Shown: positions 3,242-64,000, counted from the stretch's first letter. The stretch is DNA of 64,000 nucleotides from Dicentrarchus labrax (GCF_905237075.1 NW_026136706.1:24719935-24783934), one strand, 5' to 3'. The notes: generated by a model from the sequence alone, not told the origin. A program made the numbers and translations.

Positions 3242-4550
3242 ACACTACCAGTCAGAAGTTTGGACACACCTTCTCATTTAATGGTTTTTCTTTATTTTCA
3301 TGACTATTTACATTGTAGATTCTCACTGAAGGCATCAAAACTATGAATGAACACATATGGAATTATATAGTAAACAAAAAAGTGTGAAATAACTCAAAAC
3401 ATGTTTTATATTTTAGATTCTTCAAAATAGCCACCCTTTGCTTTGATTACTGCTTTGCACACTCTTGGCATTCTCTCGATGAGCTTCATGAGGTAGTCCA
3501 ACAGTCTTGAAGGAGTTCCCAGAGATGCTGAGCACTTGCTGGCTCTTTTGCCTTCACTCTGCGGTCCATCTCATCCCAAACCATCTCGATTGGGTTTAGG
3601 TCAGGTGACTGTGGAAGCCAGATCATCTGGCGCAGCACTCTATCATTCTCCTTCTTGGTCAAATAGCCCTTACACAGCCTGGAGGTGTGTTTGGGGTCAT
3701 TGTCCTGTTGAAAAATAAATGATGGTCCAACTAAACGCAAACTGGATGGGATGGCATGATGCTGCAGGATGCTGTGGTAGCCATGCTGGTTCAGTGTGCC
3801 TTCAATTTTGAATAAATCCCCAACAGTGTCACCAGCAAAGCACCCCAACACCATCACACCTCCTCCTCCATGCTTCACGGTGGGAACCATGCATGTACAG
3901 ACCATCCGTTCATCTTTTCTGCGTGGCACAAAGACACGGCGGGTGGAACCAAAGATCTCAAATTTGTACTCATCAGACCAAAGCAGATTTCCACTGGTCT
4001 AATGTCAATTCCTTGTGTTTCTTGGCCCAAACAAATCTCTTCTGCTTGTTGCTTTTCCTTAGTAGTGTTTTTTTAGCAGCTATCTGACCATAAAGGCCTG
4101 ATTCGCGTAGTCTCCTCTGAACAGTAGAACTCTGTGTGGCATTCATCTGGGCTCTAATCTGAGGTGCTGTTAACTTGCGATTTCTGAGGCTGGTGACTCG
4201 GATGAACTTATCCTCAGCAGCAGAGGTGACTCTTGGTCTTCCTTTCCTGGGGCGGTCCTCATGTGAGCCAGTTTCGTCGTAGCGCTTGATGGTTTTTGCG
4301 ACTGCACTTGGGGACACATTCAAAGTTTTTGCAATTTTCCGGACTGACTGACCTTCAGTTCTTAAAGTAAATGATGGACTGTCGATTCTCTTTACTTAGC
4401 TGATTGGTTCTTGCCATAATATGAATTCTAACAGTTGTCAAATGGAGCTGTTTCATATAAGGGAATAGAAACCTTTTCATGTTGCAGATGTGGGATTAAA
4501 CTGTAAAAATGTAAGATAATAATCACAGGGTGGCTGTGAATATTGACTTG
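3242..4550 (-). mobile_element. Tc1-like DNA transposon of the Sleeping-Beauty-like subfamily, decayed copy
   Basis: The right end TA-CACTACCAGTCAGAAGTTTGGACACACC at 3240 resembles the SB terminus TA-CAGTTGAAGTCGGAAGTTTACATACACC. The transposase ORFs lie on the minus strand. The left end at about 4450-4550 is diverged or truncated. Confidence 0.8.
3486..4323 (-). pseudogene. Tc1/SB-family transposase pseudogene, frameshifted between 3929 and 3973, with the C-terminus out of frame
   Basis: The ORFs at 3973..4323 (HTH: GRPRKTS..) and 3486..3929 (TVKHGGGGVMVLGCF, FQQDNDPKHTS, PQSPDLNPIE = DDE core) are in different frames. The C-terminal LIERMPRVCKAVIKAKGGYFEE is readable at 3420-3486 only in another frame. 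Confidence 0.85.
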
Positions 4551-4900
4551 TTAGAGTAGAGTATGCAAATCAATCTCACCAGTGTAACATACATACAGTT
4601 AAGATTATACCATTTGCCCAACTTTGAAAAGGCACATGAGTATTCAATTGAGATGGATGGTGAACTGGGAGCCCACTTAGTGAAAGAATGTACGCTCCCA
4701 TCTGACCAGCTCCATGTGTCTCTGTAGATCCACATTTGCTGTCCACTTGGCACTTTGTCCTTCATCAGGTCATTCTCAGCTTGGTTCCTCACACTGGCCA
4801 GGTCAGTGTAGTGCTGCCTGCAGTAGCTCTGTGCCGCCTTCCAGGTCTTGGACTCATTCACAAAGATGAAGCTTGATGAAGTGTTCTCTGTGCCTTCCAT
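4523..4900 (-). CDS. Single-exon C-type lectin-like domain (CTLD), an orphan or partial gene; no EPN/QPD or WND calcium-site motifs
   Basis: The minus-strand ORF reads ..SSSFIFVNESKTWKAAQSYCRQHYTDLASVRNQAENDLM..QMWIYRDTWSWSDGSVHSFTKWAPSSP..YSCAFSKLGKWYNLNC.., the CTLD consensus (W..A...C, WIG-like, W.WSDGS, C..... C). The exon boundaries and the rest of the gene are unresolved. Confidence 0.45.
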   Translation of the reverse strand: MEGTENTSSSFIFVNESKTWKAAQSYCRQHYTDLASVRNQAENDLMKDKVPSGQQMWIYRDTWSWSDGSVHSFTKWAPSSPSISIEYSCAFSKLGKWYNLNCMYVTLVRLICILYSNKSIFTATL

Positions 4901-11650: not shown

Positions 11651-12121
11651 ACCAGAGACAATAGGACCTAAGACCTGTTTTTTTATATCTCTATTTATTT
11701 CACTCAAATGCTGCTGTGACAAGTGAATTTCCCCATTATGGGATTAATAAAGTTATCTATCTATCTAATAGTGGTATGACACATCTTGGAAGCAGCTGAA
11801 CAAATGACCCAGAAAAAGCATGTACGCGGAGAATTTATTGTCTTATGTAGGTGCTTACTGTATAGGTATCACATGTAGTGTTGCACGGTGCACCGATACT
11901 TCAAAAGTATCGTGATTCTCGGAAATTAAAAATGTCACGATTCCTAAATTTATTAGTATCGATACTTTTAAGAATGACCGCGTTCCACATTTGTAAGAGA
12001 CGTATTTCATGTTGGTGTGTGCAACGCATGCTTCCAGTGCCTCCCTATGGACGTCTGTGTTCTTTCTTTCACGCACACAGCAAAGAAGCTGCAGCTGTCA
12101 TGTGACAAACACTGTAACGAC

Positions 12122-12352
12122 ATGGCTGCATGTGCGAGCACAAGTGATACTGTGGCCGCTGGTCCACAACTGGTAGAAAAAGATGACTCGAGGAGTGAAA
12201 TATGGAAGTACTTTGCCTACCTTGCTGACAGTGAGGGCAAAGCTACCGATAAGTCGAGACCTGTTTGTCGTCAGTGCTACAAACAAATGCAAACAAAGGG
12301 AGCCAACACCTCGAACCTGGAGAAACACTTGGCCGACAAGCATGCCGAGTAG
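12122..12352 (+). CDS. Small ORF (76 aa) that is essentially one BED-type zinc finger (SEIWKYFAY..CRQC..NTSNLEKHLADKH); a likely hAT-derived mini-ORF
   Basis: MAACASTSDTVAAGPQLVEKDDSRSEIWKYFAYLADSEGKATDKSRPVCRQCYKQMQTKGANTSNLEKHLADKHAE*. It is flanked by tatcgata/gtatcg-rich subterminal-like repeats at 11880-11960 and 13440-13500. Confidence 0.5.
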   Translation: MAACASTSDTVAAGPQLVEKDDSRSEIWKYFAYLADSEGKATDKSRPVCRQCYKQMQTKGANTSNLEKHLADKHAE

Positions 12353-24300: not shown

Positions 24301-24484
24301 AGGTGCATAGCAACAACAGTAGAACAACTACACTAATAGTAGTGACTGACAATGACAGTAACCGTAGCTATAATAATACTTATAATAATAATAACAACAC
24401 TAATATCAGTGATATTGGCAATGGCAGTCAAGCAGTACCATGGTAGGAGGCTCCACCAGGATCCATTATATATATGTGTATATA

Positions 24485-26116
24485 CAGTGGGTACCGAAAG
24501 TATTCAGACCCCTTTAAAATTTTCACTCCTTGTTTCATTGCAGCCATTTGCTAAAATCAAAAAAGTTCATTTTATTTCTCATTAATGTACACTCAGCACC
24601 CCATCTTGACAGAAAAAAACAGAAATGTAGAAATTTTTGCAAATTTATTAAAAAAGAAAAACTGAAATATCACATGGTCATAAGTATTCAGACCCTTTGC
24701 TGTGACACTCATATTTAACTCACATGCTGTCCATTTCTTCTGATCCTCCTTGAGGTGGTTCTGCTCCTTCATTGGAGTCTAGCTGTGTTTAATTAAACTG
24801 ATTGGACTTGATTAGGAAAGGCACACACCTGTCTATATAAGACCTTACAGCTCACAGTGCATGTCAGAGCAAATGAGAATCATGAGGTCGAAGGAACTGC
24901 CCAAGGAGCTCAGAGACAGAATTGTGGCAAGGCACAGATCTGGCCAAGGTTACAAAAGAATTTCTGCAGCACTCAAGGTTCCTAAGAGCACAGTGGCCTC
25001 CATAATCCTTAAATGGAAGAAGTCTGGGATGACCAGAACTCTTCCTAGACCTGGCCGTCCAGCCAAACTGAGCAATCGTGGGAGAAGAGCCTTGGTGAGA
25101 GAGGTAAAGAAGAACCCAAAGATCACTGTGGCTGAGCTCCAGAGATGCAGTAGGGAGATGGGAGAAAGTTCCACAAAGTCAACTATCACTGCAGCCCTCC
25201 ACAAGTCGGGGCTTTATGGCAGAGTGGCCGGACTGAAGCCTCTCCTCAGTGCAAGACATATGAAAGCCCGCATAGAGTTTGCCAAAAAACACATGAAGGA
25301 CTCCCAGACTATGAGAAATAAGATTCTCTGGTCTGGTGAGACCAAGATTGAACTTTTTGGCGTTAATTCTAAGCGGTATGTGTGGAGAAAACCAGGCACT
25401 GCTCATCAGCTGCCCAATACAATCCCAACAGTGAAACATGGTGGTGGCAGCATCAGGCTATGGGGATGTTTTTCAGCTACAGGGACAGGACGACTGGTTG
25501 CAATTGAAGGAAAGATGAATGCGGCCAAGTACAGAGATATCCTGGAAGAAAACCTCTTCCAGAGTGCTCAGGACCTTAGACTGGGCCGAAGGTTCACCTT
25601 CCAACAAGACAATAACCCTAAGCACACAGCTAAAATAACAAAGGAGTGGCTTCGGAACAACTCTGTGACCATTCTTGACTGGCCCAGCCAGAGCCCTGAC
25701 CTAAACCCAATTGAGCATCTCTGGAGAGATCTGAAAATGGCTGTCCACCAACGTTCACCATCCAACCTGACAGAACTGGAGAGGATCTGCAAGGAAGAAT
25801 GGCAGAGGATCCCCAAATCCATGTGTGAAAAACTTGTTGCATCATTCCCAAGAAGACTCATGGCTGTAGTAGCTCAAAAGGGTGCTTCTACTCAATACTG
25901 AGCAAAGGGTCTGAATACTTATGACCATGTGATATTTCAGTTTTTCTTTTTTAATAAATTTGCAAAAATTTCTACATTTGTTTTTTTTCTGTCAAGATGG
26001 GGTGCTGAGTGTACATTAATGAGAAATAAAATGAACTTTTTTGATTTTAGCAAATGGCTGCAAAGAAACAAAGAGTGAAAAATTGAAAGGGGTCTGAATA
26101 CTTTCCGTACCCACTG
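24485..26116 (+). mobile_element. Complete Tc1-like DNA transposon (1632 bp) with TA target-site duplications and 30-bp TIRs CAGTGGGTACCGAAAGTATTCAGACCCCTT
   Basis: TA at 24483-84 and 26117-18. Both ends carry inverted copies of cagtgggtac(c/g)gaaagtattcagacccc. Confidence 0.95.
24861..25901 (+). CDS. Tc1-family transposase, 346 aa, intact ORF with a helix-turn-helix region and a DDE catalytic region. The first catalytic Asp is replaced by Gly (LWSGETK).
   Basis: The ORF reads MSEQMRIMRSKELPKELRDRIVARHRSGQGYKRISAAL...ILWSGETKIELFG...FQQDNNPKHT...DWPSQSPDLNPIEHLW... Codon GGT at 25333-35 stands where copy 3 and canonical Tc1/SB have GAT. Confidence 0.9.
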   Translation: MSEQMRIMRSKELPKELRDRIVARHRSGQGYKRISAALKVPKSTVASIILKWKKSGMTRTLPRPGRPAKLSNRGRRALVREVKKNPKITVAELQRCSREMGESSTKSTITAALHKSGLYGRVAGLKPLLSARHMKARIEFAKKHMKDSQTMRNKILWSGETKIELFGVNSKRYVWRKPGTAHQLPNTIPTVKHGGGSIRLWGCFSATGTGRLVAIEGKMNAAKYRDILEENLFQSAQDLRLGRRFTFQQDNNPKHTAKITKEWLRNNSVTILDWPSQSPDLNPIEHLWRDLKMAVHQRSPSNLTELERICKEEWQRIPKSMCEKLVASFPRRLMAVVAQKGASTQY

Positions 26117-26942
26117 TATATGCATTGGCTATGTTCATATAACAACAAATATGATCTTAATCTCTATGGGCTTTTACCTGGTTAAATAAAGCTTAAATGA
26201 AATAATATAATACAAGGATTTCAATATTCATATAATTTATTATGTTGTGTCTATGTTAATTAACCATATTTTAAAATTTGCAATATCCTTTGTTACAACT
26301 TAAGCATTTGTTTTATTAAGTCAGTTTTAGCCCCATCAGCTACCACAAAGTGGAACTAACTTGCTCATTAAGCTGGTCGTGCTGGATAGGCTATGGTTGT
26401 GCATCTGTTGTCTCCAGGACTCCTGTTCCTGGAGCAGATGACCATATAATATCTGTCACAAAAGTAGTGTTTAAATCGGAGCAATCTGAAGCTCCCGGGG
26501 ATTACTTTTATATATGTTTATTATTTGAAACTTTGGACAAGTTTATTATGAACACCCAACATTGTACCATTATATAGGCCTATATGACAGAAAATAAAGG
26601 AAAGCATAGCAATAGCAATATGTCCCCTTTAAGAATGCAACTCCGTTTGACACATATGAAAAATGGAAACATATATAATACATAATAAGGTATAAGCAAC
26701 ACAAAAAGTCAGATTTTCAAATAATGTTTCACTTTTACATGAAAAAAGGCTTTGAGGATTAGACTGAACTTTTCATACATTGTACTCATTTATACAGTCT
26801 GATTACATAAATTCCATTTCTTTTACAGACATAGATTATTCATGTCAACATACAAGACCATTTACGACTAAAGCCACTCCATAATCAGAGCTTATATAGA
26901 AAAAGCATTATCAAATGTATGATCTCAAAACATACAGCAATG

Positions 26943-28799: not shown

Positions 28800-30800
28800 T
28801 GGGCATACCTTATTTAAAAAGCAGCTCTCATCGACGGCGTTTCTGTGATGCAAATAGGTTATTCACCATGTCATTAAAGCCTGCTGATTTTTTGATGAAG
28901 TCCCGCTCAATGGACAGCATAGCCAGTTTGTTTAGCCTGTCCTGTCTCATTGTACTTCTAAGAAAGGATTTGATCCTTTTCAGTGTACTGAAACACCTCT
29001 CTGACTCTGCAGATGATGGGGGTTGTGATGGCTATGTGGGTTACTTTCAGTGTTTCAGAAAAAGTGCTCTATGGATTGTTCATTGTCACTCTCAAAAGTG
29101 AGATTGCAGACATTAGGTCTGCAAACTTCACACTGCTGTACATGACCATCAGTTTATCCCTGCAGATCACTGGGTAATGAGCACATGCAATGTCCAGCTA
29201 CTTCTGCAGGAAAGTGTTCTTAAACAGTGGAAAGATTTCAGGGTCAATATGTTTGAAAGACACCAAGTGCCTGGCTTTCTTATTATGTGGCCATTATGTG
29301 ACAGCACTGTGCGGCCATTATGTGACAGCACTGTGCGGCTTTTGACACATTATCAGACCACCGCATCCTGCGCGGCGTTGCAGCGGCCGCAGCTGTGTCC
29401 ATGTCTGGATGTGGCTGATTGTCATCTGTGGTCAGAAGTTCAGATATGGAGGATGAAAAATTCTTCAGGGCCTGTCTCGTTTTGAGAGACTCTGTGATCT
29501 GTTTCTGAAGAATGCTGTAGAGAATATCTACATGCATGAGGGCAGAGTGGGAAGAAGATAAAAAGAAAAGAAAGCTGAGGTCCCCCAGAAATGCGGACAG
29601 GTTGTCCCAAGACTAATCATCCTGTACTTTTTCAAAACACTGTTTCAAAGTGTCCTGATGTTCAAACATGGTGTGGCTGGTACAGCTTGTAAAGTTCCAC
29701 CTTCTTTGTCCTGACGCTGGCATCCTCCTGCCACACACTTCATCTAGGACTGCCGTTGTCTTGGGGGACTTGGAGAAAAACATTTGCAAAAAATATTCTG
29801 ACGGCTGTGTGAGATGAGCAGGCCTGTTGCATGATGAGGTTTAACTGGTGGGCATAGCAGTGCATAAAGTGTGCGTGAGGGAGTGTGTCCTTTAACCTGG
29901 CCTTTAGGCTGGATGATGCACCGCTCATTACAGCTGCCCCGCCATATGTCATATGTGCGATCAGTTTGTTCTCCAACGTATATGGCTGTAGCTTCTCCAG
30001 CAGCAGTGTTTCGAGTCCCGCTGCAGTTCTATCAACTAACAGGGAGAAAGTGAGGAATCTTTCCACCACCATGGTGGCTTCAATGACGTACCTGAACACA
30101 ATCACACACTGGCTTACACAGGTCACATCTGCAATATTTCATCTGCCAGTTTTTGTTCATAAATCTCTAACATACAGTCAAGCAACTCATTTTGGCTGGT
30201 CTTAGATGTGTACTTGGCAACCTGTCTAAAAAAGAGAACCGGTTGACGAGGTCCAGAAACACAGATTCATCGGACCCCTGCAGGGCAACCTTGTGTCCCC
30301 CACAAAATGTAATACAGTCTACAATCTGTGAAAGTGAATGACTGTTTTTCTTTACCAGCTCGTTGTGTCTCTGTACAGCGGCCCTCATTAAGCTGACAGG
30401 TGATGTTCACTTTAACCAGCAATGACAACTTTACTCTATTTCCAATGTGGCTTGTGTTTCATGTTTTCTAATTTTGTCAGATAAATGCTTCAAATCCACA
30501 ATTCCTTGTTGGGTCCAAACCGTGTCTCCTCCAAAAAGCAAACATGGGAAAAAGTGAACTGAATCACAGAAAAGTGAATTCCTAGCTACACTTGCCAGTC
30601 CTTTCCTTAAAACCACGTAACACAAAAGTTAAGATTTTGTCGTTTGTGTTATTTGAATGTCTTTTGGATGATGTGTCCCAAATCTCTTCACTTCCAATTT
30701 TCCCTCCAAAGACATTAAAGAAAGTAAATAATCCACCTCGTTCATGTTCATGCGAACGCCCGCCATTACTACAGTTGCTCACTTCCCCCTCTCCACGTTC
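28800..30800 (-). pseudogene. hAT-superfamily transposase pseudogene with multiple frameshifts (ZBED/Charlie-like); copy 1, inside gene B intron 4
   Basis: Minus-strand ORF fragments at 30431..30625, 30167..30388 and 29740..30126 contain ..MTYGGAAVMSG...HFMHCYAHQLNL.., the hAT C-x-A-H-x-L-N-L block. The C-terminal RC of 28800-28900 gives KLAMLSIERDFIKKSAGFNDMVNNLFASQKRRR*, which is hAT-dimerisation-domain-like. It is paralogous to 62505-64000. Confidence 0.7.
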
Positions 30801-43376: not shown

Positions 43377-44534
43377 ATGAACCCAGCCAACTCAGACCAC
43401 CTGTCGGCAACCATTCGCTCCCATAGCGTACGCCTTAATCAGCAGGAGGACCAGATGTCCGCCGTGCATCAGGGAGTGAAAACGCTGGCAGACAGTCAAG
43501 AGGAGTTCAGGTCTGGCATGACAGCCCAAGTGACTCTCTTGTCTACCCAGATTCATCAGGTGTTTGCTCACCTGACCAAGGACCCCTCAGCCACGCCTCC
43601 CCCGGCGATCGCCGTAGCACCACCAGTTCCAGGTACCCACGCCCTGGCTCCTCGTCTCGCTCCACCCGAAAAATTCTCTGGTGAGTCTGGAGAATGCCGG
43701 TGGTTCATTGTGAACTGTGAAATGCACTATGAACAATTGCCATCAGCCTTCCCCACAGAAAAATCCAAGGTGGCGTTCATGATCTACCATCTCACTGGGA
43801 GAGCAAGGGCTTGGGCTACGGCGGAATGGTCCCGTGGATTGTCGATCTGTCAATCCGTGGATCGGTTCATAGAGGCGTTGAGGAGAGTTTTCGACCCTAC
43901 CACGTCAGACAGAGAAACGGCACGCAAGCTGAGCAGCATCAGGCAAGGCATGGACTCTGTTTCTGATTATGCCATCCGCTTCCGCACCTTAGCCACAGAT
44001 AGCGGGTGGAATTCCACAGTGCTGTATGATGCTTTTATCAAAGGACTCTCTGATCCCATACAAGATTTATTGGTTCCTCTTGATCTGCCTGAGGATCGTG
44101 ACTCTGTGATCGCGTTAGCGGTCAGAACTGACCATCGCTTGACGGAGCGGAACAGGGACAAGTCACAAGCTACAGTTTTCCTGGATCACACCAGAGGTCA
44201 TCCTTTGCCTGCTTCACGTGGTTGGAGGGATTCTCTCCGTCCGTCATCGCCAGTCCCGAGGAGAGCAGTACCCCCCAGCAACTCGGAGGAACCCATGCAG
44301 CTAGGAAGGGCCAAGTTGTCTGCAGAGGAGCGACGACGCCGCCTACAGGAAGGGAGGTGCTTCTATTGTGGACAACTGGGACATCTGCTGGCAGCATGCC
44401 CAGTTAAAGAGAATGCCCACCAGCTGAAGGAGGGATTCCGGGTGAGTCACTCCTCCACCACTGACAGTCCCTCCCGCTCCCTAACTGACATCCAGGTAAA
44501 ACACCATGACAGTTTCTCTGGGAGTATTAATTGA
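43377..44534 (+). CDS. Retrotransposon Gag with a CCHC zinc knuckle (CFYCGQLGHLLAACP)
   Basis: 385-aa ORF with a capsid-like region and C-x2-C-x4-H-x4-C at the C-terminus. Confidence 0.85.
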   Translation: MNPANSDHLSATIRSHSVRLNQQEDQMSAVHQGVKTLADSQEEFRSGMTAQVTLLSTQIHQVFAHLTKDPSATPPPAIAVAPPVPGTHALAPRLAPPEKFSGESGECRWFIVNCEMHYEQLPSAFPTEKSKVAFMIYHLTGRARAWATAEWSRGLSICQSVDRFIEALRRVFDPTTSDRETARKLSSIRQGMDSVSDYAIRFRTLATDSGWNSTVLYDAFIKGLSDPIQDLLVPLDLPEDRDSVIALAVRTDHRLTERNRDKSQATVFLDHTRGHPLPASRGWRDSLRPSSPVPRRAVPPSNSEEPMQLGRAKLSAEERRRRLQEGRCFYCGQLGHLLAACPVKENAHQLKEGFRVSHSSTTDSPSRSLTDIQVKHHDSFSGSIN

Positions 44535-46486
44535 CTCTGGGGCAGATGAAAGCTTCATGGATTGGGGCTTTGCTCACAAGCTGAATGTTAAGACTGAACC
44601 TTTATCTCAGCCCTTGGAGGCTAGTGCCTTAGATGGCAGCTTCATTTTTAAAGTAACCCATGTAACTGAGCCAGTAGAAGTGACAATTGAGGATCACCAT
44701 GAACTGATGTCTTATCACCTGATTCACTCTGCTCTACACCCTCTGATCCTGGGGTTCCCCTGGCTCAAGAGACATAACCCCCACATTGACTGGTGTTCAG
44801 GGAAGGTTATGGGATGGGTAAGGCCCGGGGTAGGGGCAGGGCTTGACCTGAACAAAAAGGTGGAAATTGGGGTGGTTGCTGACTTAAACTCTGCTTCTGT
44901 TCTGCCCCACACAGACTTAAAGGTTGACCGGCCTGACCTGACCTCCATTCCCAGTTACTACCATGATCTCGAGGAGGTATTCAGTAAGAGTAAGGCCATG
45001 TCTCTACCACCCCATCGACCTTATGACTTTCCTATTGATCTTATCCCGGGGGCACCAATTCCAAAGAGGAGGTTATATTCCATTTCGGGCCCTGAGAAGG
45101 TAGCCATGACTGAGTATATTGAGGCGTCCTTAAAAACAGGACTCATCTGCCCCTCATCCTCCCTAGCAGGGGCAGGGTTTTTCTTTGTGGAGAAAAAAGA
45201 TGGTTCCCTGAGACCCTGTATTGACTGTGGACCTCTAAATGACATTACCATTAAGAATCGGTACCCCTCTGCCTCTCATGTCATTTTGAACAACTGCAAC
45301 AGGCCAAGATTTTTACGAAGCCTGACCTAAGAAACGCATATCACTTGGTCTGCGTTAGAGAGGGGGATGAGTGGAAGACTGGTTTTAACACTCCTTCCAG
45401 GCATTACGAATATGTTGTAATGCCATTTGGACTGACCAATGCCCCTGCAGTGTTTCAGGCCCTAATCAATGACGTACTGAGGGAATTTCTCAACCAGTTT
45501 GTGTTTGTCTATTTGGATGACATCCTGATCTTCTCCCCAGATAAAGATTCTCATGTTGGTCATGTCCGCCAGCTGGAGAACCAGCTTTATGTTAAGCAGA
45601 AAAAAGTGAATTTCATGCCGTTCCTGGGCTTCATCATAGCCCCTGGTCAGATACAAATGGATCCGGCTAAAGTTAGCGCTGTGGCTCAGTGGCCTACACC
45701 TGATAATCACAAGAAGGTCCAGCAGTTTCTGGGCTTTGCTAACTTCTACAGGCGGTTTATCAGAAACTTCAGCGCAATAGCTTCTTCTCTTCATGTTCTC
45801 ACATCTCCTCAAGCTCCATTCCTGTGGTCTCCTCAAGCTGAGGAGGCCTTCACCCGGCTCAAGGAGATGTTCACCACCGCTCCCATTCTCACGGTTCCAG
45901 ACCCCAGTCGGCAGTTTGTGAGGTGGATGCCTTCAACGAAGGAGTAGGGGCGGTTCTCTCGCAGCGCTCTGCCAAGGACCACAAGCTGCATCCATGTGCC
46001 TTCCTGTCCAGGAAGCTTTCACCAGCAGAGCGGAACTATGATGTCGGTAACTGTGAGTTACTTGCTGTTAAGATAGCATTGGAAGAGTGGAGACATTGGT
46101 TAGAGGTGTCCGAAGTGATTAATCCTGTCACCGTCCATCTGCGCCTTCCCAGGTCCGTGAGGGTGCATCCTACTTTTCATGTTGGCAAGCTCAAACCGGT
46201 TAATGATAGTCCCATGGTTCCCGCAGCCCCCCCCCCACGAATGGTTGACGGTGGTCCGGTCTTCTCAGTTAAGAGACTCTTAGCAGTTCGTAACCGGGGA
46301 AGAGGACGCCAGTATCTGGTGGACTGGCAGAGCTATGGCCCAGAAGAACGCTCGTGGGTACGCTCAAGTTTTATTATGGACCCAGCCCTCATCAGAGACT
46401 TCCATGACCGTCAGCCTCAGGTTCCTGGTCCGTCAGGAGCCGTCACTAGAGGGGGGGGTACCGTCATGTCCAGGAAACTTTGTTAA
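44506..46486 (+). pseudogene. Retrotransposon Pol (aspartic protease, RT, RNase H, C-terminal chromodomain), with a frameshift near 45300-45345 and the integrase catalytic core deleted
   Basis: Protease LIDSGADESFMD. RT: ..LTNAPAVFQ.., [13 protein letters not shown] (YxDD). RNase H: [14 protein letters not shown]...[24 protein letters not shown]. The reading then jumps directly to [11 protein letters not shown]...[31 protein letters not shown], a chromodomain, with no HHCC or DDE integrase block in between. Confidence 0.85.
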
Positions 46487-47810
46487 GTTAATTCATTCAG
46501 CTTTGTCTCATGTTAATGTTATCTCAGCTAGCGTTAGATTTGTTGTTCTGCTGCTTCGTTCAGGTGTGTATATGTGTGTTACAGTGAGTGTGTGTGTGTT
46601 ACGGTGTGTAAATTAACTTGATCTACGTGCACCGGAGTTAACAACAGAGCTACTGTGAGAGAAATAGTCAAACTCAGTAGAGCAACAAGGGACCCACCAG
46701 TGATACTGCTTTATTTTATTTTCTAACATAGGACTACAATGAGCCACAATGAGCTGTTGTACTTGTATTATATTACACTGTATATTATATGCTGCCTTAG
46801 AAGTAACACTGAATCTGCCTTGACTTACAGGTGACCTGATGAAGCTCAGGTGTTCCTAGACCCATCAGAGGACAGAGACAGCTGCAGCATCAGGACAGTC
46901 TGGGTATCCAAAGGAAGACTGATGAAGATGAACACTGACTGCAGAGCTCCATTACCAGCTCACACTTCAATATACTAGAAACCATAAACCTTGATGGAGG
47001 ACATCATCTGCACAGTTTACATAAAAGTTCTAGCTTTGTTACTTACAACATGTGTAACTGGAATATGAATTAAACATAAATAAAGTGCTTTACTTTTAAG
47101 AAGAGTTTGTCATTTTTAAATTCAGTAATAAGTGTGGTTTTATATAAATAACAGGTTGTCAGGTTTTATCAAGATTTCCTGGATGTACAAGAGTTAAAAA
47201 CCTGGTTCGTGTAACATCTATAAATATGAAAATGTGGAATTTAAACCTGTATTAATTACTGTAAGTAACACAATACATTACTGTCTCACATTCAAACTTT
47301 ATTATGTTGGAAGATAAATGACAATATATATAAAATAAAACGTAAAACATAATTGCAGCTTTTACACATATCTGAAGGTTAACTTTGGTAATAATACTTT
47401 CAAGTTAAAATATCAGACTATGAAATATGGGTACAGTACAAGTTACTTTATTAGATGAGTAATTCCTTCAGTTATGTTGACATGTTGTACAGGAGCAAGT
47501 ATTCAGGTTTCTGTTTCCATGGTCTCAGTAAACTTATGTGTATAAGGAATATAACAGATGGGAGGTTACAGTAATCATTATACTATTACTCTGATTACTT
47601 TGGTACATTCACTGGGTATTTCTTCACTAAAAACAGCTGCTTGACTAATGTTGTTAATATTATGTAATATATATAATATGTTTAACTTCACTGGGCTCTG
47701 TAGACTGTAGGTCACTGCTCACTGCTGTACCTGTAAAGACAAGCATAAAACACTGTTGGTTCTCATAGTTAAGGTATAAACACTAACATTATGTGATAGA
47801 GGTTTATATA

Positions 47811-49369
47811 CAGTGGGTACGGAAAGTATTCAGACCCCTTTAAATGTTTCACTCTTTGTGTCATTGCAGCCATTTGCTAAAATCAAAAAAGTTAAATTTT
47901 ATTTCTCATTAATGTACACTCAGCACCCCATCTTGACAAAAAAAACAAATGTAAAAATTTTTGCAAATTTATTAAAAAAGAAAAACCGAAATATCACATG
48001 GTCATAAGTATTCACCCCCTTTGCTCAGTATTGAGTAGAAGCACCCTTTTGAGCTACTACAGCCATGAGTCTTCTTGGGAATGATGCAACAAGTTTTTCA
48101 CACCTGGATTTGGGGATCCTCTGCCAGTCTTCCTTGCAGATCCTCTCCAGTTCTGTCAGGTTGGATGGTGAACGTTGGTGGACAGCCATTTTCAGATCTC
48201 TCCAGAGATGCTCAATTGGGTTTAGGTCAGGGCTCCGGCTGGGCCAGTCAACAATGGTCACAGAGGTTCTGAAGCCACTCCTTTGTTATTTTAGCTGTGT
48301 GCTTAGGGTTATTGTCTTGTTGGAAGGTAAACCTTCGGCCCAGTCTGAGGTCCTGAGCACTCTGGAAGAGGTTTTCTTCCAGGAAATCTCTGTACTTGGC
48401 CGCATTCATCTTTCCTTCAATTGCAACCAGTCGTCCTGTCCCTGCAGCTGAAAAACATCCCCATAGCCTGATGCTGCCACCACCATGTTTCACTGTTGGG
48501 ATTGTATTTGGCAGGTGATGAGCAGTGCCTGGTTTTCTCCACACATACCGCTTAGAATTAACGCCAAAAAGTTTAATCTTGGTCTCATCAGACCAGATAA
48601 TCTTATTTCTCATAGTCTGGGAGTCCTTCATGTGTTTTTTGGCAAACTCTATGCGGGCTTTCATATGTCTTGCACTGAGGAGAGGCTTCCGTCGGGCCAC
48701 TCTGCCATAAAGCCCCAACTGGTGCAGGGCTGCAGTGATAGTTGACTTTGTGGAACTTTCTCCCATCTCCCTACTGCATCTCTGGAGCTCAGCCACAGTG
48801 ATCTTTGGGTTCTTCTTTACCTCACTCACCAAGGCTCTTCTCCCACGATTGCTCAGTTTGGCTGGACGGCCAGGTCTAGGAAGAGTTCTGGTCGTCCCAA
48901 ACTTCTTCCATTTAAGGATTATGGAGGCCACTGTGCTCTTAGGAACCTTGAGTTCCTTGAATTCGTTCCTTCGACCTCATGATTCTCATTTGCTCTGACA
49001 TGCACTGTGAGTCTTATATAGACAGGTGTGTGCCTTTCCTAATCAAGTCCAATCAGTTTAATTAAACACAGCTGGACTCCAATGAAGGAGCAGGACCATC
49101 TCAAGGAGGATCAGAAGAAATGGACAGCAAGTGAGTTAAATATGAGTGTCACAGCAAAGGGTCTGAATACTTATGACCATGTGATATTGCAGTTTTTCTT
49201 TTTTAATAAATTTGCAAAAATTTCTACATGTCTGTTTTTTTCTGTCAAGATGGGGTGCTGAGTGTACATTAATGAGAAATAAAATGAACTTTTTTGATTT
49301 TAGCAAATGGCCGCAATGAAACAAAGAGTGAAAAATTTAAAGGGGTCTGAATACTTTCCGTACCCACTG
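47811..49369 (-). mobile_element. Tc1-like transposon copy 3 (1559 bp), same family as 24485..26116, TA-flanked, degenerate
   Basis: The TIRs cagtgggtacggaaagtattcagacccc are at both ends, with TA at 47809-10 and 49370-71. It is 73 bp shorter than copy 2, owing to a deletion in the N-terminal HTH region (RC around 48940-48990). Confidence 0.95.
48025..48931 (-). pseudogene. Tc1 transposase pseudogene: a frameshift between ORFs 48248..48931 and 48025..48261, plus an N-terminal deletion. It retains the canonical IWSDETK catalytic Asp.
   Basis: Two overlapping minus-strand ORFs together cover residues about 50-346 of the copy-2 protein. GAT (Asp) in copy 3 replaces GGT (Gly) of copy 2 in W-S-D/G-E-T-K. 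Confidence 0.9.
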
Positions 49370-49375
49370 TATATA

Positions 49376-49619
49376 TAATTAATATAGCAGTATCACACAC
49401 ACACACACCTGAACGAAGCAGAAGAACAACAAAGCTAACGCTAGCTGAGATAAAGTTAGCACGTCAGTATAAAGTTACACAAGAAGCATCATGAACAATA
49501 ATCATCATAACTTACTCCCTGTATTTTGTTAACGTTAGCTTCTAAGGAGGCTTGATCACAGTTTGACTATTTCTCTCTCACGGTAGCTCTATCTTTACCT
49601 CTGGTACATTTACATACAG

Positions 49620-62504: not shown

Positions 62505-64000
62505 TTTAGCCTGTCCTGTCTCATTGTACTTCTAAGAAAGGATTTGATCCTTTTCAGTGTACTGAAACACCTCTCTGACTCTGCAGATGATGGGGGTTGT
62601 GATGGCTATTTGGGTTACTTTCAGTGTTTCAAAAAAAGTGCTCTGAAGGTTGTTCTCAGTCATTCTCAAAAGTGAGATTGCAGATGTTAAGCCCGCAAAC
62701 TCCACACTGCTGTACATGACCATCAGTTTATCCCTGCAGATCACTGGGTAATGAGCACATGGAATGTCCAGCTGCTTCTGCAGGAAAGTGTTCTTAAACA
62801 GTGGAAAGATTTCAGGGTCAATATGTTTGAAAGACACCAAGTGCCTGGCTTTCTTATTATTATTATGTGACAGCACTGTGCGGCTTTTGACACATTATCA
62901 AACCACTGCATCCTGCACGGCGTTGCAGCAGCTGCAGCTGTGTCCACATCTGGATGTGGCTGATTGTCATCTGTGGTCAGAAGTTCAGATATGGATGACG
63001 GAAAATTCTTCTGGGCCTGTCTCGTTTTGAGAGACCCTGTGATCTGTTTCTGAAGAATGCTGTAGAGAATATCTACACGCATGAGGGCAGAGTGGAAAGA
63101 AGATAAAACGAAAAGAAAGCTGATGTCCCCCAGAAATGTGGACAGGATGTGTGCTTGTTGGATTGACATGCTGTCCCAAGACTGATCATCCTGTACTTTT
63201 TCAAAACACTGTTTCAAAGTGTCCTGATGTTCAAACATGGTGTGGCTGGTGCAGCTTTTAAAGTTCCACCTTCTTTGTCCTGACGCTGGGATCCTCCTGC
63301 CACACACTTTATCCAGGACTGCAGTTCTCTTGGGGGACTTGGAGAAAAACGTTGGCAAAAAATATTCTGACGGCTGTGTGAGATGATGAGGTTTAACTGG
63401 TGGGCATAGCAGTGCACAAAGTGTGCGCGAGGGAACGTTTACTTTAACCTGGCCTTTAGCACCGCTCATTACAGCTGCCCCGCCATATCTCATATGTGCG
63501 ATCAGTTTGAACGTATATGGCTGCAGCTTCTCCAGCAGCAGTTATTCAAGTCCCGCCGCAGTTCTATCCACTAACGGGGAGAAACATGCCCCGCTGGAGT
63601 CAAGTGGGAGGTTCATCGGACCCCTGCAGGGCGACCTCGTGTCCCCCACAAAATGTAATACAGTCTACAATCTGTGAAAGTGAATGACTGTTTTACTTTA
63701 CCGGCTTGTTGTGTCTCTGTACAGCGGCCCTCATTAAGCTGACAGGTGATGTTCACTTTAACCAGCAATGGCAACTTTACTCTATTTCCAATGTGGCTCG
63801 TGCTTCATGTTTTCTAATTTTGTCGTATAAATGTTTCAGATCCACAATTCCTTGTTGGGTCCAAACCATGTCTCCTCCAAAAAGCAAACATGGGAAACAG
63901 AAAAGTGAATTCCTAGCTACACTTGCCAGTCCTTTCCTTAAAACCACGTAACACAAAAGTTAAGATTTTGTCTTTTGGATGATGTGTCCCCAATCTCTTC
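62505..64000 (-). pseudogene. hAT-superfamily transposase pseudogene, copy 2 (paralogue of 28925..30625), running to the window end
   Basis: 62505-62700 matches 28925-29120 and 63420-63990 matches 29860-30680. The minus ORF 62741..63493 retains MRYGGAAVMSGA. The 63214..63417 ORF retains MHCYAHQLNLI. Confidence 0.7.

Follow-up and report, generated by a model that had tools for sequence, protein, structure and literature searches.

A full-length Tzf-type Tc1 transposon in sea bass DNA, very probably inactivated by a point mutation at its first catalytic aspartate

The Dicentrarchus labrax DNA analyzed here (a stretch of 64,000 nucleotides, referred to as the window) holds a complete Tc1-like DNA transposon of 1632 bp at positions 24485-26116, copy 2, together with a damaged sibling of the same subfamily, copy 3. 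The transposase frame of copy 2 is open throughout and encodes glycine at the position of the first DDE aspartate. This raises the question of whether copy 2 is an element in decay, a transposase retained as a repressor of its own family, a member of a lineage with a non-canonical catalytic residue, or a product of sequencing error. A preliminary description of the locus had left several of these readings standing.

Architecture of the element and its transposase gene

Copy 2 starts with CAGTGGGTAC and ends with GTACCCACTG, and is bounded on both sides by the TA duplications that the preliminary description had reported (Table 1); TA flanks are also found on copy 3 and on the elements in two public contigs (L001 and L002). 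The inverted repeats are much longer than the intact 30-bp repeats first described, with arms of 217 and 216 bp that are 96.8% identical to each other in a self-BLAST comparison. The one mismatch within their first 30 bp (29 of 30 positions agree) stems from a G>C change at 24495 that is private to copy 2 and alters the left outer binding repeat at its position 11; two further private changes of the left arm, at 24519 and 24529, are apparent in an eight-way alignment. Each arm contains an outer and an inner direct repeat, and at this length the arms agree with the IR/DR type (inverted repeats of ~200-250 bp). The direct repeat core, AAGTATTCAGACCC(C/T)TT, lies at 24498 and 24682, a spacing of 184, and is mirrored at 25904 and 26087, and the right inverted repeat begins at the transposase stop codon. 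The element itself is far beyond chance.

Both copies sit in short TA-repeat contexts, with copy 2 lying between GTGTATATA (24465-24484) and TATATGC (26117-26125), and copy 3 between TTTATATA (47791-47810) and TATATATAAT (49370-49389). SB and ZB elements are reported to prefer AT-repeat targets (PMC9777934), and these contexts agree with that preference.

The uninterrupted 346-aa reading frame noted at the outset is confirmed. Its true start may be Met8 at 24882, as proposed from the alignment to Sleeping Beauty (SB) and from database relatives of 339 aa. The three Pfam domains, HTH_SB, HTH_Tnp_Tc3_2, and DDE_3, follow one another in the usual Tc1 order, all scoring above the curated cut-offs. 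The transposase is 50% identical in amino acid sequence to SB10, and the homology was confirmed against PDB entries 5cr4, 2m8e, and 5unk. With its TA duplication, its terminal inverted repeats around one gene, and its bipartite HTH and DDE_3 domains, copy 2 belongs to the DD34E/Tc1 group of Tc1/mariner elements.

Two adjacent private changes lie in the inter-domain linker, a region (RRKPLL/GLKPLL) that also overlaps the second basic cluster of the Sleeping Beauty nuclear-localisation signal. In the alignment to 5cr4, codons 124-125 are equivalent to SB residues 118-119, at the start of the KKPLLS motif of the SB linker (aa 117-127; PMC4820933, PMC9777934).

Table 1. Features of copy 2, its coding changes, and other elements in the window (window coordinates)
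Feature	Position	Strand	Basis or remark
5' TA target-site duplication	24483..24484		direct read: ..GTGTATA TA, then CAGTGGG
Left inverted repeat, ~217 bp, IR/DR type	24485..24701	+	self-BLAST vs right arm
Left-arm DR cores	outer 24498-24514, inner 24682-24698		repeat search
Transposase ORF, 346 aa from first ATG	24861..25901	+	ORF listing; sole long frame
PAI-type helix-turn-helix, aa 8-59	24882..25037	+	Pfam PF25787 HTH_SB, E=8.7e-26
RED-type helix-turn-helix, Tc3_2 domain, aa 75-146	25083..25298	+	Pfam PF01498 HTH_Tnp_Tc3_2, E=4e-21
Codons 124-125, inter-domain linker	25230..25235	+	private R124G and R125L: family RRKPLL to GLKPLL
Codon 159, GGT (Gly), first catalytic Asp (SB D153)	25335..25337	+	inside ..KILWSGETKIELFG..
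DDE_3 catalytic (RNase H-like) domain, aa 160-306	25338..25778	+	Pfam PF13358, E=1e-15
D250, kept	25608-25610
N252, subfamily variant	25614-25616
E285, kept	25713-25715
Right inverted repeat, ~216 bp	25901..26116	-	self-BLAST, repeat search
Right-arm DR cores	inner 25904-25920, outer 26087-26103		repeat search
3' TA target-site duplication	26117..26118		direct read: CCCACTG, then TA TATGC
F55S	25024		nonsynonymous; PAI HTH
T57M	25030		nonsynonymous, recurrent CpG change; PAI HTH
Q115K	25203		nonsynonymous; RED HTH (Tc3_2)
R124G			nonsynonymous; linker
R125L			nonsynonymous; linker
D159G	25336		nonsynonymous; catalytic triad
H183Q			nonsynonymous
A207T			nonsynonymous
R321M			nonsynonymous
L239L			synonymous
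Sibling copy 3, 1559 bp, same subfamily	47811..49369	-	sequence comparison
Remnant of a different Tc1 family	3486-4353	-	31-38% identical to copy-2 protein
C-type lectin domain ORF	4523-4900	-
BED zinc-finger ORF	12017-12352	+
ORF with ..YGGAAVMSGA..	29740-30126	-
Ty3/gypsy retrotransposon	43377-46486	+	long open segments
ORF with ..YGGAAVMSGA..	62741-63493	-

Codon 159 and the catalytic triad

The glycine that the preliminary description placed at the first DDE aspartate is indeed encoded by copy 2. A PDB sequence search aligns aa 120-346 of its transposase to the catalytic domain of SB100X (5cr4, E=3.2e-82), with Gly159 of ..ilwsGetkielfg.. falling opposite the Asp of ..vlwsDetkielfg.., and it is this homology to a solved structure that fixes the catalytic role of the residue. 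In SB100X, the catalytic residues are D153, D244, and E279 (PMC4820933). The second and third members are kept in copy 2, 34 residues apart, so that the triad reads G159, D250, E285 and departs from DD34E at its first residue with the spacing of 34 retained.

Glycine is not the state of the family. A search of 5.8 billion proteins gave 4926 relatives at E<=1e-30, and in the best 120 of these, aligned for the codon-159 column, Asp is present in 115 and Glu in one, with four gaps and no Gly. The 56 close relatives (>90% identity; the five closest 90%-identity clusters) likewise contain 53 Asp, three gaps, and no Gly, and overall Gly occurs at residue 159 in none of 168 related database proteins. 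At the DNA level, six related copies were taken from public contigs, four at 94-97% identity (L001-L004) and two at 88-90% (L005 and L006); the base aligned with 25336 is A in each of these and in copy 3, hence in all seven other DNA copies. The consensus of TZF28C, a zebrafish element discussed below, reads TGG TCT GAT GAG at the triad site. A metagenome scan with a pattern spanning the codon, with R at the variable base, found one contig only, L003, which has GAT. These counts of D and G cover database relatives and the two copies in the window. Judged from them, Gly159 is private to copy 2, Asp is the family consensus, and the ancestral codon reads as GAT, with A>G at 25336 (and not at 25334, as initially given) as the change. 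The preliminary description had named a glycine consensus as one finding that would overturn its interpretation, and the proteins, the DNA copies, and TZF28C all speak against one. Since the family consensus retains the triad (D in 115 of 116), copy 2 is a mutated member by descent and not an outsider.

The first carboxylate is needed for metal-dependent cleavage and strand transfer in the established DDE/RNase H mechanism, and for this reason the Gly159 protein is almost certainly catalytically dead, in support of the earlier inference. With D159G and the change of RRKPLL to GLKPLL, copy 2 also lacks the full set of catalytic residues and conserved motifs that an autonomous element encodes.

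A further variant near the active site is common to the subfamily. Copy 2 has N252, and copy 3 has the same codon; throughout the sea-bass-type subfamily, DNNPKH takes the place of DNDPKH, with Asn at the equivalent of SB D246 and the Lys equivalent to K248 kept. DNNPKH is also present in P0121, P0125, P0128, P0140, P0151, and P0152, and it marks a separate Polypterus senegalus subfamily that is ~72% identical (P0107, P0114, P0116, P0119, and P0120). D246 is reported to be present in all K248-containing transposases, and D246A alone to be detrimental (PMC6943129). That a D>N subfamily has been amplified suggests either that Asn is tolerated or that its copies were moved in trans.

Family membership and relatives

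Copy 2 is 90.9% identical at the nucleotide level to TZF28C (1-1632 against 1-1629), a zebrafish Repbase consensus that we transcribed from Suppl. Dataset 1 of PMC7913693. This identity, against a membership threshold of at least 80% over at least 80% of the consensus, places copy 2 in Tzf/TZF28C, and the family is thus already known. The two have identical termini (CAGTGGGTACGGAAAGTATTCAGACCCC), the same IR/DR layout and ORF position, and the same insertion at TA. They differ in that the zebrafish consensus contains stops and frameshifts, whereas the copy-2 frame is open, and in their hosts, that of copy 2 being a percomorph. Copy 2 further differs from TZF28C by Gly at the first Asp and by the subfamily changes M199R, D252N, V271I, and L337V. 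Seven derived bases are common to copies 2 and 3 in the eight-way alignment, including those for M199R, D252N, and L337V, and among database proteins the R199/N252/I271/V337 signature is found in Dicentrarchus labrax entries only.

Copy 3 has GAT (Asp) at the equivalent of codon 159, as had been claimed (variable base 48588, within IIWSDETKIKLFG). Its private substitutions number 28, and it differs from copy 2 by five indels, namely 8 bp upstream of the ATG (5' UTR), ~62 bp within the N-terminal coding sequence, a frameshift of 2 bp at 25659-25660 in copy-2 numbering, 2 bp within the right inverted repeat, and an insertion of 1 bp. The frameshift described earlier is therefore present, but the single 73-bp N-terminal deletion is not; the 73-bp difference in length is the sum of the five indels.

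When the ten ORF changes of copy 2 are reverted, the reconstructed ancestor differs by 2 aa from a D. labrax database protein, A0A8P4G4S9 (P0121), in which the DDE triad is intact. There are thus potentially autonomous siblings, by which copy 2 could be mobilised in trans, and the reconstructed ancestor could be a candidate for a naturally active vertebrate Tzf transposon.

Among better-known elements, Sleeping Beauty, a Tc1-like transposon reconstructed from salmonid sequences (SB100X, 5cr4), resembles copy 2 in its domain order (PAI and RED HTH, linker, DD34E RNase H-like domain), in its long IR/DR arms, each bearing two binding repeats, and in its TA target. It belongs to another Tc1 lineage, however, with CAGTT ends as opposed to the CAGTG of copy 2, and copy 2 differs from it in lacking the equivalent of D153 and in having a right inverted repeat that starts at the stop codon. 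ZB (Tc1-8B_DR) and other naturally intact fish Tc1 elements are likewise young DD34E/Tc1 transposons; they measure ~1.6 kb, their TIRs are roughly 200 bp long, and many of their ORFs are open (PMC7913693, PMC9777934). The ends of ZB read CAGCG, its transposase has 341 aa, and its copies share >99% identity, whereas copy 2, of a distinct lineage, is ~1% diverged with a broken triad. Peptides and termini of the copy-2 family are absent from the supplements of the ZB/SB survey (PMC9777934). A filing of copy 2 under ZB, ZB-like, SB, or SB-like elements was rejected on this absence and on the differing ends (CAGTT in SB and SB-like elements, CAGCG in ZB). A search of literature full text for the terminal sequence and motif strings gave no match.

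The ~91% nucleotide identity between copy 2 and zebrafish TZF28C is far closer than expected from the divergence of the hosts, and sequences from Mastacembelus, Dicentrarchus, Sparus, and Amphiprion occur together in single protein clusters of 90% identity (P0001, P0002, and P0003). Such closeness across hosts agrees with reports of horizontal transfer among fish Tc1 elements. Some relatives appear under unexpected names: a database protein 78% identical to the copy-2 transposase, on a contig of 1.4 kb, is labelled 'IS630 family transposase [Escherichia coli]', Acinetobacter baumannii is given as the source of a fragment, and a TARA ocean metagenome scaffold contains one copy. The bacterial and metagenomic entries (P0069, P0135, and L006) look like fish DNA contamination and not bacterial genes.

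Probable decay of copy 2 and the alternatives to it

Counting as private those changes found in copy 2 alone within the eight-way DNA alignment, copy 2 has 17 private substitutions (1.04%) and no private indels. Ten substitutions fall in the 1041-bp ORF and eight in the 591 non-coding bp (0.96% versus 1.35%, Fisher p=0.47), where the ten include T57M although it is a recurrent CpG transition and not strictly private. Eight or nine of the ORF changes are nonsynonymous and one is synonymous, and R124G/R125L, F55S, and R321M hit conserved sites (0-1 occurrences among the 56 close relatives). Nonsynonymous changes should make up 70-73% of random substitutions, and on this expectation the probability of at least 9 in 10 is 0.19-0.28 under neutrality; under purifying selection, it falls to <0.01 when omega<=0.3 and to 0.03-0.06 when omega=0.5. 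The changes in copy 2 fit neutrality, and omega<=0.3 is rejected; given only ten ORF substitutions, weak constraint (omega ~0.5-1) is inseparable from strict neutrality. The preliminary description had called the element "structurally perfect" and, apart from one residue, seemingly autonomous. Neither view survives these changes, which reach the outer binding repeat and the linker and which, in the protein, outnumber the lone synonymous substitution at the expense of conserved sites.

At the zebrafish substitution rate of 4.13e-9 per site per year (PMC7913693), a divergence of 1.04% would roughly date the insertion to the order of a few million years ago. The ORF is open because too little time has elapsed for a stop codon or an indel. 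Ten random substitutions leave a frame without a stop codon with a probability of ~0.65, and the share of equally old copies expected to retain an open frame is roughly one quarter, a figure that uses an indel:substitution ratio of ~1:10 estimated roughly from the other copies. A broken triad is similarly unexceptional. For nine nonsynonymous changes, the probability that one or more hit the triad is 7.5%, and of the 102 family ORFs of full length (335-360 aa) in the database, 9 have a triad that is substituted or incomplete, with DDK, DYE, DDV, DDG, DNE, DAE, and others in its place. As ~9% of full-length family ORFs have comparable lesions, copy 2 is not special. Counts of 'intact copies' that are based on TIRs, TSDs, and ORF length alone, as in TE surveys, hence overestimate the number of active copies.

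Copy 2 is very probably a young, neutrally evolving Tzf (TZF28C) DD34E/Tc1 insertion, ~1% from its subfamily master, that was inactivated by point mutation. The A>G change at 25336, one of ~17 private mutations, turned the first metal-binding Asp of the RNase H-like site into Gly; from the DDE mechanism, the resulting transposase should no longer cleave or join DNA, which would leave copy 2 dependent on transposase supplied in trans, for instance by intact siblings. As both IR/DR arms and the TA flanks are kept, copy 2 is best called non-autonomous by point mutation. In the life cycle of Tc1/mariner elements, this is the standard stage of 'vertical inactivation'; the stage described in the work on vertical inactivation and dominant-negative complementation (Lohe et al. 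1995; Lohe & Hartl 1996; PMC3878927) is exactly that of copy 2, with no difference in kind. Decay in progress, which the preliminary description had offered as a fallback, is thus what the private Gly and the neutral pattern of change show. Copy 2 is an ordinary, already explained phenomenon and not a new kind of regulator; it illustrates vertical inactivation cleanly and in quantified form for a known fish Tc1 family, and otherwise matters little.

One alternative is that a catalysis-dead transposase that still binds DNA is kept to repress the Tzf family, or measurably inhibits it in a dominant-negative manner, either by occupying IR/DR sites or by poisoning mixed oligomers. The open ORF and the two HTH domains recognisable by Pfam would allow for this, and Sleeping Beauty is multimeric, with dimer contacts in 5cr4 (PMC4820933). 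Defective transposases of Tc1/mariner elements may poison active ones by 'dominant-negative complementation' (PMC3878927), a concept documented in mariner (Lohe & Hartl 1996, cited there). We nevertheless consider an inhibitor improbable, since copy 2 shows no sign of selection in its rate of change, which equals that of its non-coding part, or in its nonsynonymous to synonymous count of 8-9:1, for which strong constraint is rejected. Private changes moreover affect the linker and second basic cluster, the PAI domain (F55S and T57M), and the element's own outer binding repeat, and those in the linker and PAI domain would, if anything, weaken a poisoning effect. Copy 2 has kept its TIRs and TSDs, unlike domesticated transposases, and it shares its kind of lesion with the other family ORFs counted above. 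Neither the purifying selection nor the loss of ends that would mark a domesticated or selected repressor is observed, both arms and both TA flanks being present, and the proposal of a dominant-negative or repressor role as a selected function finds no support.

An unselected poisoning effect is possible if copy 2 is expressed. Poisoning by defective transposases is already textbook for Tc1/mariner and is therefore not a new proposal. It is very unlikely that copy 2 is transcribed and that its Gly159 protein binds IR/DR sites and joins mixed transpososomes, thereby forming a natural dominant-negative brake on intact Tzf copies; if true, this would be self-limitation caught in the act in a vertebrate Tc1 family.

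It is also highly doubtful that the G at 25336 stems from an error in sequencing or assembly, or represents a rare polymorphism, with GAT as the real allele and the triad intact. In favor of this reading, the change is a single-base transition, and the public protein collection has no record of the exact copy-2 protein. The 16 other private substitutions, however, are spread evenly over 1.6 kb in a pattern of real divergence, and the double mutation of the linker and the other private changes would persist even with Asp restored. Finally, an active lineage with Gly as a non-canonical first catalytic residue has the open reading frame in its favor and nothing more, and is effectively refuted by the codon-159 column, in which the closest sea-bass subfamily members also have no Gly, by GAT in copy 3, the six other DNA copies, and the TZF28C consensus, and by the lack of a carboxylate on Gly for the metal ion.

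Copy 2 lies in a transposon-rich window. The remnant of a different Tc1 family has FQQDNDPKH and is directly adjoined by a C-type lectin domain ORF, which is probably a host exon. Two minus-strand ORFs have a common N-terminal motif (..YGGAAVMSGA..) and no Pfam match; together with the BED zinc-finger ORF, they are possibly hAT-type or ZBED-like fragments. The Ty3/gypsy retrotransposon comprises gag, aspartyl protease, RT, RNase H, and chromodomain segments, with no integrase ORF seen between RNase H and the chromodomain. An exact look-up of its gag ORF returned no record; the ORF encodes 385 aa with a zinc knuckle. Copy 3 lies ~1.3 kb downstream of this element.
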